From Escherichia coli (GTDB lineage Bacteria; Pseudomonadota; Gammaproteobacteria; Enterobacterales; Enterobacteriaceae), in assembly GCF_044324875.1 (NCBI RefSeq), contig NZ_CP172185.1: DNA of 64,000 bases. One strand, written 5' to 3'. Shown piece by piece: positions 59,865 to 61,328 of the stretch. Under the pieces are notes generated by a model. That model searched no databases. It was given only the letters and a program-made list of their open reading frames with translations, and was not told the DNA's origin. How positions within the stretch are numbered: the first letter of the stretch is position 1; each line of letters begins with the position of its first letter. A program made the translations under genes and the position numbers.

Positions 59865-59906
59865 TGAACTGCACCCCAAATGTTGGACATAATCTGACAT
59901 CTGAAG

Positions 59907-60437
59907 GTGCAGTTTATGAAACATTCATTTGAAGTAAAACTTGCCGCTGTAAATCACTACCTGGCTGGTCATGCAGGCATCATTTCTACGGCAAAACTCT
60001 TTCAACTTTCTCACACCAGCCTCTCACACTGGATTAATCTTTTTCTTCTTCACGGTCCTCGGGCACTGGATTGCAGACACAAGCGTAGCTATTCTCCTGA
60101 AGATAAACTTTGCGTGGTTCTTTATGCTCTCGGGCATTCTGAGTCTCTACCCCGGGTAGCTGCCCGGTTTAACATTCCCAGCCACAACACGGTTAAAAAC
60201 TGGATAAAAGGCTACCGCAAATCTGGTAATGAGGCCTTTATCAGGCGCTGGAAGGAGAAAAGCATGACCCGTTCTGATGATACCCATGAAAACGAGGCAA
60301 ACATGACGCCGGAAGAGATGAAGAATGAGCTGCGTTATCTTCGCGCAGAAAATGCATATCTGAAAGCCATGCAGGAGCATCTCCTGGAAAAAAAGCGCCA
60401 GGAGCTGGAGAAAAAACGAAAGTCATCCGGAGCCTGA
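59907..60437 (+). CDS. IS transposase OrfA (HTH, leucine-zipper-like C-terminus)
   Basis: 176-aa ORF; contains the frameshift site near its 3' end. Confidence 0.85.
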   Translation: MQFMKHSFEVKLAAVNHYLAGHAGIISTAKLFQLSHTSLSHWINLFLLHGPRALDCRHKRSYSPEDKLCVVLYALGHSESLPRVAARFNIPSHNTVKNWIKGYRKSGNEAFIRRWKEKSMTRSDDTHENEANMTPEEMKNELRYLRAENAYLKAMQEHLLEKKRQELEKKRKSSGA

Positions 60438-61264
60438 GGTGCGGACACTGCCAGTCTGACCTGTTAAAGGCTGCAGGGCTGGCCAGAAGCACGCTGTACT
60501 ACCAGCTGTCACTGCAGAAGGCTAAGGACAAGTATGCTGATGTGAAACAGCTCATAGCCTCCATCTTCCATGAACACCGGGGATGTTATGGGTACCGGCG
60601 GATCCATTGTGAGCTTCAGAAAAGAGGTCTTAAGTTCAGTGGCAAAACGGTGCGAAAACTGATGCAACAGCTCGGCCTGAAGTCTCCTGTGCGCCTGAAG
60701 AAATACCGGTCTTACCGGGGAAATATGGGACTCGCTGCAGAAAATATCCTTCAGCGGCAGTTCAAAGCGGAAGCTCCCTGTGAGAAATGGGTGACAGATA
60801 TCACCGAATTCAGGGCTGGCGGACAAAAACTGTACCTGTCCCCGATACTTGATTTGTTTAACGGGGAAATCGTGGCGTGGGAAACGGCCTGCAGGCCTAC
60901 AGAGGAGCTGGTGAAGCGGATGTTAAATAAGGGGCTGGAAAGCCTTGCTGAAGGGGAGAAACCGCTGCTCCACAGTGATCAAGGATGGCATTACCGGATA
61001 AAAAGTTATCAGTCCGCCCTGGCGGACAGAGGGTTAGTGCAGAGCATGTCGCGCAAGGGCAACTGCCTTGATAATGCGGTAATGGAGAACTTCTTTGGTC
61101 ACCTGAAAGAAGAAATGTACTATCGCCGGGACTACAGAAATGTAGAAGAGCTGGAAAATGCCGTTAACGAATACATAACTTACTGGAATCAAAAAAGAAT
61201 AAAACTCAGTCTTGGGGGACTCAGTCCGGTAGAATACCGGACTGAGCATCAAAAAGCCGGTTAA
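59907..61264 (+). CDS. IS transposase OrfAB fusion produced by programmed -1 ribosomal frameshift; DDE catalytic domain
   Basis: orfB frame is -1 relative to orfA (60542-60389 is a multiple of 3, and the orfA frame is at 60390); DDE context WVTDITEF, LHSDQGWHY, DNAVMENFF. Confidence 0.75.
60389..60395 (+). promoter_or_regulatory. Programmed -1 frameshift slippery heptamer A AAA AAG
   Basis: Sequence ctggaaaaaaagcgc with AAA and AAG as zero-frame codons of orfA. Confidence 0.7.
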
Positions 61265-61328
61265 CTGAAACTGTCCAGGTTTTGGGGTTCAGTTCACACC
61301 GCGTCTTATCAGGCCTACACGTTGAAAC

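Follow-up and report, generated by a model that had tools for sequence, protein, structure and literature searches.

IS1397 is an insertion sequence (IS) of the IS3 family. It has been shown experimentally to insert into repetitive extragenic palindromic sequences (REPs) of Escherichia coli, and this specificity has been attributed to its transposase (PMC1525189). Among the works cited there, the element was studied by Bachellier in 1997, Clement in 1999 and Wilde in 2001 and 2003. Here we describe a copy of IS1397 found between the rluA and djlA genes in a 64,000-nucleotide stretch of E. coli contig NZ_CP172185.1 (assembly GCF_044324875.1), below called the window. The presence of an IS1397 copy in its usual REP target is already known and ordinary. 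What sets the window copy apart is a pair of flanking triplets that do not match each other.

ISKpn1 of Klebsiella pneumoniae also belongs to the IS3 family and has transposase-determined specificity for REP loops (PMC1525189), but is a separate element with a Klebsiella-type REP target, set apart here by its description only. REPs are also the preferred insertion targets of IS621, ISPpu9, ISPpu10, ISPsy8 and ISPa11 (PMC1525189). Of these, ISPsy8 is an IS3-family element, and the other four belong to other families. In contrast to IS1397, the IS110-family elements IS621 and ISPpu9 use DEDD chemistry, have no terminal inverted repeats and occupy another position in the REP. IS911, IS3 and IS2 are similar to IS1397 in the arrangement of OrfA and a frameshifted OrfAB transposase of the DDE type, and transpose by the copy-out-paste-in route via a circle, with target repeats of 3-4 bp (PMC2909936, PMC3299598, PMC4066793). 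In the circles of IS3-family elements, 3-4 bp from the donor flank lie between the abutted ends (PMC2909936). However, IS911, IS3 and IS2 have little target specificity, whereas IS1397 targets REPs. Their frameshift signals are mostly A_AAA_AAG heptamers with defined stimulators, whereas the IS1397 candidate signal is G_AAA_AAA_C with no significant structure downstream.

The element and its boundaries

The window copy of IS1397 occupies positions 59865-61296, is 1432 bp long and complete. It starts with TGAACTGCACCCCAAATGTTGGACA and finishes with TGTCCAGGTTTTGGGGTTCAGTTCA. The terminal inverted repeats are 25 bp long and imperfect (21/25 identical positions), with the termini TG...CA (TGAAC...GTTCA). 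The left repeat (IRL) reads TGAACTGCACCCCAAATGTTGGACA, and the right repeat (IRR), given as the reverse complement of the right end, reads TGAACTGAACCCCAAAACCTGGACA. The IRL 25-mer occurs once in the window, versus 0 occurrences expected by chance.

The 1432-bp element was used as a megablast query against 5,426 complete E. coli genomes. Matches were found in 3,485 genomes and full-length copies in 1,707, and a single genome may hold up to 40 copies. At least 18 RefSeq records contain copies that are 100% identical over bases 1-1432. They come from other genomes and loci, and the matches stop precisely at query positions 1 and 1432. The label "IS3-like element IS1397 family transposase" is common to all these copies. 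Two of them, from the barA-gudD locus, were inspected and have an intact joined coding sequence (CDS) with a "programmed frameshift" in the RefSeq annotation. Other named IS1397 copies differ from the window copy in 11-19 positions.

At 11 further IS1397 sites, TGAAC...GTTCA marks the exact limits beyond which the flanks differ. Since the identical copies end at the same bases and the flanks at other sites diverge there, the boundaries 59865 and 61296 are correct. The original prediction, made from the letters of the window, had placed a 1432-bp IS3-family element with imperfect inverted repeats at exactly these coordinates, had tentatively named it IS1397 and had flagged its boundaries for checking. 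All of this stands: the termini are common to all 11 other copies, and the name agrees with the annotation of the identical ones. The element is almost certainly an intact IS1397 that lies in the loop at the centre of a Z-type REP, in the spacer between rluA and djlA, whose 3' ends face each other.

The termini of the element consist of near-tandem pentamers, GTTCA GTTCA on the right (61287-61296) and TGAAC TGCAC on the left (59865-59874). The loops of Y-type REPs also have the motif GTTCAC, and therefore the transposase end sequence resembles one of the target loops. The 19-nt right end GGTTTTGGGGTTCAGTTCA has exact matches in contigs labelled E. albertii, Erwinia sp. JUb26 and Klebsiella sp. 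BIGb0407, and in several metagenome-assembled genomes of unrelated phyla (Ruminococcaceae, Planctomycetaceae, Oscillospiraceae, Fibrimonas). In none of these contigs is the left end of IS1397 present 1432 bp upstream of the match. These contigs could contain related IS3 elements or be contaminated.

The target site

The element is preceded by GCCTGATGCGACGCGGGC and followed by CACCGCGTCTTATCAGGCCTAC, in agreement with the original reading of the flanks. Its removal rejoins two arms of one Z-type REP, and the insertion point is the exact centre of the palindrome. The empty alleles of AF39, NT1F34 and BH100 contain this REP as a single palindrome GCCTGATGCGACGCGGGCCGCGTCTTATCAGGC, and all three read GCCTGATGCGACGCGGGCCGCGTCTTATCAGGCCTAC at the empty site. 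The closest empty site is that of AF39 (98.8%). The insertion into a single REP had been proposed originally, together with the provision that the flanks should rebuild a REP when the element is taken out. This is what is seen in all three genomes.

The split REP has the features of a typical member of this group, that is, an imperfect palindrome of about 35 bp, conserved arms, intergenic recurrence and inverse pairing. Intact REPs with identical arms are located in the window at 47408-47444 and 52770-52803, and a variant is located at approximately 8280. The REP-arm pattern has 4 matches in the window, versus 0.03 expected. An intact Y-type palindromic unit, GTAGGCCGGAGAAGGCGTTCACGCCGCATCCGGC, lies on the rluA side of the split REP in the inverse orientation, so that the two form an inverted pair similar to a bacterial interspersed mosaic element (BIME).

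An alignment with the rluA-djlA region of K-12 had been suggested as the means of reconstructing the empty site. K-12 proved unusable as a reference, as the interval is occupied there by yabP, yabQ and a transposase remnant, the REP arm is absent, and the match begins only 13 bp beyond the REP tail. In E. coli K-12 DHB4 (NZ_CP014270.1, 56712-59377), a frameshifted yabP, yabQ and a partial transposase are found at the position of the REP pair. In alleles of the B2/ST131 type (loci L003, 503-661, and L006, 903-1014), the REP split in the window has a degraded left arm, TTGTCTGATGCTGCTC, and an intact right arm, with a whole additional REP, GCCGGATGCGACGCTGGCGCGTCTTATCCGGCCTAC, between the two. 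The arrangement looks like one REP that sits in the loop of another or has taken the place of this loop. The rluA-djlA spacer is structurally polymorphic across E. coli. The region around the element (57865-63296) has at best 98.8% identity to any of the 5,426 genomes, and the mur/fts cluster (20000-28000) has 99.6%; the lineage of the window is therefore absent from this collection.

The mismatched flanking triplet

The occupied site equals the empty site plus 1432 bp and 3 bp, as expected for a 3-bp target duplication. However, the triplet to the left of the element is GGC (59862-59864), whereas the triplet to the right is CAC. The right junction with CAC was found in 0 of the 5,426 complete genomes. 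At the very same position, strains 4621 and TUM1226 carry an IS1397 that is flanked by GGC on both sides. The state of the 3-bp repeat is a footprint of the insertion event and not a property of the element. The original prediction had noted that no clean duplication of 3-4 bp is obvious at the ends; the missing repeat is a real anomaly specific to this copy and not an error in the boundaries.

Several simple ways to obtain such a site were considered and rejected. No shift of the boundaries restores a matching direct repeat of 3-4 bp, and the termini are those of all other copies. A crossover between two IS copies would produce hybrid flanks, whereas here one REP at one locus supplies both flanks, which are similarly diverged from the references. 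An inversion in place from the configuration seen in 4621 and TUM1226 would retain GGC. Template switching to the neighbouring REP, GTTCACGCCGC, does not fit the sequence. Finally, deletion from the nested-REP allele of the B2 strains (L003, L006) is not compatible with the left flank, which belongs to the other allele type.

Other insertions of IS1397

The 11 other IS1397 sites were compared with the window, orientations being given relative to the window copy. In all of them the target is a REP loop, and the element is flanked by a perfect direct repeat of 3-4 bp. Five of these sites lie in the rluA-djlA spacer. In BH100, IS1397 is inserted in the neighbouring Y-type REP in the same orientation (repeat TTC), and in ST131 MB1341, in the extra REP of the B2-type allele, also in the same orientation (repeat TGGC). 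Three strains have the element in the opposite orientation in the REP split in the window: IAI39 with a shift of 1 bp (repeat GCC), and 4621 and TUM1226 at the identical position (repeat GGC). The remaining sites are those upstream of yiaT in 4621 (repeat TAAC), upstream of ssuB in C4 (TGA), in cysM-cysA of JNE25-005 (TTGC), in dolP-yraQ of FHI_NMBU_03 (TTGC), in barA-gudD of A10 / 2021CK-01784 (GTTA), and in a Y-type REP of a metagenome contig (L026), where the element stands between GGCGTTCAC and CACGCCGC (repeat CAC).

The rluA-djlA spacer has accepted at least five independent IS1397 insertions, in two different REPs and in both orientations: that of the window, that shared by 4621, TUM1226, 755 and MS 69-1, and those of IAI39, BH100 and ST131 MB1341. 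The spacer is a recurrent target of IS1397. The window copy agrees with IS1397 in the length of 1432 bp, the terminal repeats, the -1 arrangement of orfA and orfB and insertion into a REP loop, but only the window copy has a previously unlisted junction and a non-matching flanking triplet.

In BH100, IS1397 is found in 37 places. The copy in the spacer (L005, 953-2384) is 1431 bp long and is annotated as a frameshifted pseudogene, which looks like an expansion of the element that includes a decaying copy. In the metagenome contig QWCB01000830.1 (L025, 81-220), the right end of an IS1397-like element abuts an apparently coding sequence that is not a REP. The sequence past this end also begins with CACCGC (TTCA followed by CACCGCAACGCGACAGG). 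This junction is possibly an exception to REP targeting or an artefact of the contig end.

Reading frames and the transposase

Both reading frames of the element are open. As had been originally noted, they are in the 0/-1 arrangement: they overlap at a run of six adenines (A6), and the -1 frame is open from this run to the stop codon at 61264. The ATG codon of orfA (IS position 52) coincides with the CDS start in the RefSeq annotation of identical copies. A GTG codon at 59907 is also open in the same frame. The OrfA protein covers positions 1-90 of the NCBIfam profile NF033516 (IS3 transposase) and contains, besides two HTH_28 motifs, a C-terminal stretch resembling a coiled coil or leucine zipper. 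The orfB portion matches the same profile at positions 92-369 with 327.3 bits, the cut-off being 160. Fusion of the two frames at the A6 run gives a product of 449 aa, the same length as that encoded by the 1349-nt joined CDS in RefSeq. Pfam domains in the fused protein are HTH_28 (twice), HTH_21, rve (7e-21), rve_2 and rve_3. The DDE residues are found in orfB in the contexts WVTDITEF, LHSDQG and DNAVMENFF...K..E. These matches place the element in the IS3 family, in agreement with the original assignment.

The A6 run is a candidate site of programmed -1 frameshifting, judging by the sequence and the phase of the two frames. It reads G_AAA_AAA_C in the phase of orfA and includes the tetramer A_AA.A, which is a weak frameshift motif, yet well represented in the IS1 and IS3 families (PMC4066793). 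Sequences AGGAG/GGAG are located just upstream of the run. A scan of the region for promoter and terminator consensus sequences produced nothing above chance. Shortly before IRR, the 3'-terminal part of orfB contains a perfect stem of 12 bp with a loop of 3 nt (61220-61246, CTCAGTCCGGTA gaa TACCGGACTGAG). This stem might affect the stability of the 3' end of the transposase mRNA or the accessibility of IRR.

Origin of the triplet

In the IS3-family paradigm, ribosomal slippage by -1 on the A6 run would yield OrfA and the transframe transposase OrfAB. OrfAB, having a helix-turn-helix (HTH) part, HTH_21 and the DDE/rve core, would bind the 25-bp terminal repeats. One end of the element would then attack its own strand at a point about 3 nt beyond the opposite end, replication would produce a circular copy with the abutted ends separated by 3-4 bp of the donor flank, and the circle would be cleaved and pasted into a REP loop via a staggered cut of 3-4 bp. 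By analogy with the described elements, we infer that the window copy may use frameshifting and a circle intermediate and may be currently active.

Our best guess, a tentative one made by analogy with this pathway, is that CAC was carried over from the transposon circle, in which it was the 3-nt spacer derived from the donor. A donor copy with the CAC repeat, residing in a REP with the GTTCAC loop, would give a circle with the spacer CAC. Cleavage of the circle junction, as derived from the published pathway, would leave 5'-phosphorylated overhangs of 3 nt. Such 5' overhangs of 3 nt have been shown for linear molecules of IS3. After strand transfer, the bottom-strand overhang 5'-GTG at IRR would fit exactly into the 3-nt gap across from GGC: a G:C pair would form at the ligatable end of the nick, followed by T.G and then G.G. 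If the overhang were ligated directly instead of being removed and filled in, replication would yield one daughter in which GGC precedes the element and CAC follows it, as observed. This explanation is consistent with the presence of exactly 3 extra bp at the site and with the natural CAC/CAC copy of an IS1397-like element in the Y-type GTTCAC-loop REP of the L026 contig. REPs with GTTCAC loops are common, and the neighbouring REP at 59798-59831 is one of them.

A normal GGC/GGC insertion could also have been followed by two point mutations in the right copy (G>C and G>A), or the triplet could be a sequencing or assembly error. The last C is common to GGC and CAC, and some mutation is expected in this lineage, which is 0.9-1.3% diverged from the nearest reference on both flanks. 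On the other hand, the element is 100% identical to copies elsewhere, which speaks for a recent insertion, the REP arms on either side are unchanged, and two substitutions in three adjacent bases are improbable at a background divergence of about 1%. We consider this origin possible but doubtful. Gene conversion or homologous exchange with an IS1397 copy that has the CAC repeat in a similar Z-type REP seems somewhat less plausible still. The conversion tract would start within the element and end in the common REP arm CGCGTCTTATCAGGCCTAC, and the donor would be recognized by IS1397 followed by CACCGCGTCTTATC. The abundance of the element (up to 40 copies per genome) and the identity of REP arms between loci argue for such an exchange, and recombination between REPs is documented in work cited in PMC1525189. 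However, the homologous arm is only about 19 bp long, and the Z-type REPs examined had the loops TTAAC, TTGA, TTGC, TGGC, TGAC, TTGCC and GGGCC, none of them CAC.

The ancestral REP loop of this lineage might have been different (for example, ...GGGCACC..., allele GACGCGGGCCGCGTC), with a duplication of 0-1 bp, or the boundaries of the element might differ from 59865 and 61296. Indeed, the 5,426 genomes contain no empty-site relative above 98.8%. However, every empty allele, from diverse lineages, reads GGGCC, all 11 other insertions have repeats of 3-4 bp and exactly these termini, and 4621 and TUM1226 use the identical position with the GGC repeat. Thus an unusual ancestral loop is improbable. 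Least likely by far, and in effect already refuted, is that we are dealing with an element other than IS1397 or with a decayed and inactive remnant of some other member of the IS3 family. In favour of this, the copy of BH100 is 1431 bp long and annotated as frameshifted, and the name comes from the RefSeq annotation rather than from ISfinder. However, RefSeq treats copies with 100% identity to that of the window as intact, with a programmed frameshift, neither of the two frames of the window copy is interrupted, its DDE residues are in place and its inverted repeats are complete at both ends.

Returning to an intact IS1397 and the carry-over of a donor-derived spacer, a number of observations weigh against them. 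A direct repeat of 3-4 bp is expected for the IS3 family, and here the 3 extra bp are present but the two sequences are mismatched. The name IS1397 holds but is based on the RefSeq annotation rather than on an alignment with ISfinder or X92970. The predicted RNA fold downstream of the slippery run is no better than that of shuffled sequences (z = -0.78). The exact sequence of the fused OrfAB has no entry in the protein collection, and thus the precise frameshift junction is a predicted one. Finally, the carry-over explanation is based on one junction, within 64 kb of this genome.

Neighbouring genes and coordinates

The genes rluA and djlA converge on the element, as the original prediction had it, and therefore no coding sequence or operon is interrupted. 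The RefSeq annotation of homologous loci agrees on rluA. The stop codon of djlA is 10 bp from the tail of the split REP. A change in 3'-end stability is possible, as is antisense read-through from orfAB into djlA. The features of the locus are listed in Table 1.

Table 1. Features of the IS1397 insertion in the rluA-djlA spacer (positions in the window)
Feature	Coordinates	Strand	Basis
rluA, 219 aa	59117..59776	+	NCBIfam NF007543 equivalog, 509.6 bits, full length
Intact Y-type palindromic unit GTAGGCCGGAGAAGGCGTTCACGCCGCATCCGGC	59798..59831	.	Inverted repeats; IS1397 target in BH100 (TTC)
Split Z-type REP, left arm and loop, GCCTGATGCGACGCGGGC	59847..59864	+	Empty alleles; intact same-arm REP at 47408-47444
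IS1397, complete 1432-bp copy	59865..61296	+	100% identity to RefSeq-annotated copies
IRL	59865..59889	+	25 bp, begins 5'-TG
orfA, 173 aa	59916..60437	+	List of open reading frames; NF033516 positions 1-90; Pfam HTH_28 twice
Candidate slippery A6 run	60411..60416	+	G_AAA_AAA_C in the phase of orfA; contains A_AA.A tetramer
orfB portion, -1 frame, 282 aa	60416..61264	+	HTH_21 and DDE catalytic core
IRR	61272..61296	-	25 bp, ends CA-3'
Anomalous triplet CAC in place of the right-hand GGC copy	61297..61299	+	Comparison of the occupied and empty sites
Split Z-type REP, right arm and tail, CGCGTCTTATCAGGCCTAC	61300..61318	+	Inverted repeats, empty alleles
djlA, 271 aa	61329..62144	-	NCBIfam NF006948 equivalog, 460.7 bits

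Implications

The practical value of the observation is small. A mobile element has been annotated that disrupts no gene and only splits a REP hairpin 10 bp downstream of djlA. What is added is the exact empty site, the correction concerning K-12, the evidence for a recurrent target and the mismatched triplet, for which a testable explanation is offered. REP targeting can be conveniently studied in the rluA-djlA spacer as a natural locus, and the spacer is also a possible marker for strain typing.

Only the mismatched triplet is of wider interest. It is possible, if doubtful, that it is a molecular fossil of the copy-out-paste-in intermediate. If carry-over is true generally, odd half-repeats at the junctions of IS3-family elements would record the flank of the donor copy. 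Such half-repeats could then be mined across thousands of genomes, which would allow one to trace donor-to-daughter lineages of insertion sequences within genomes.

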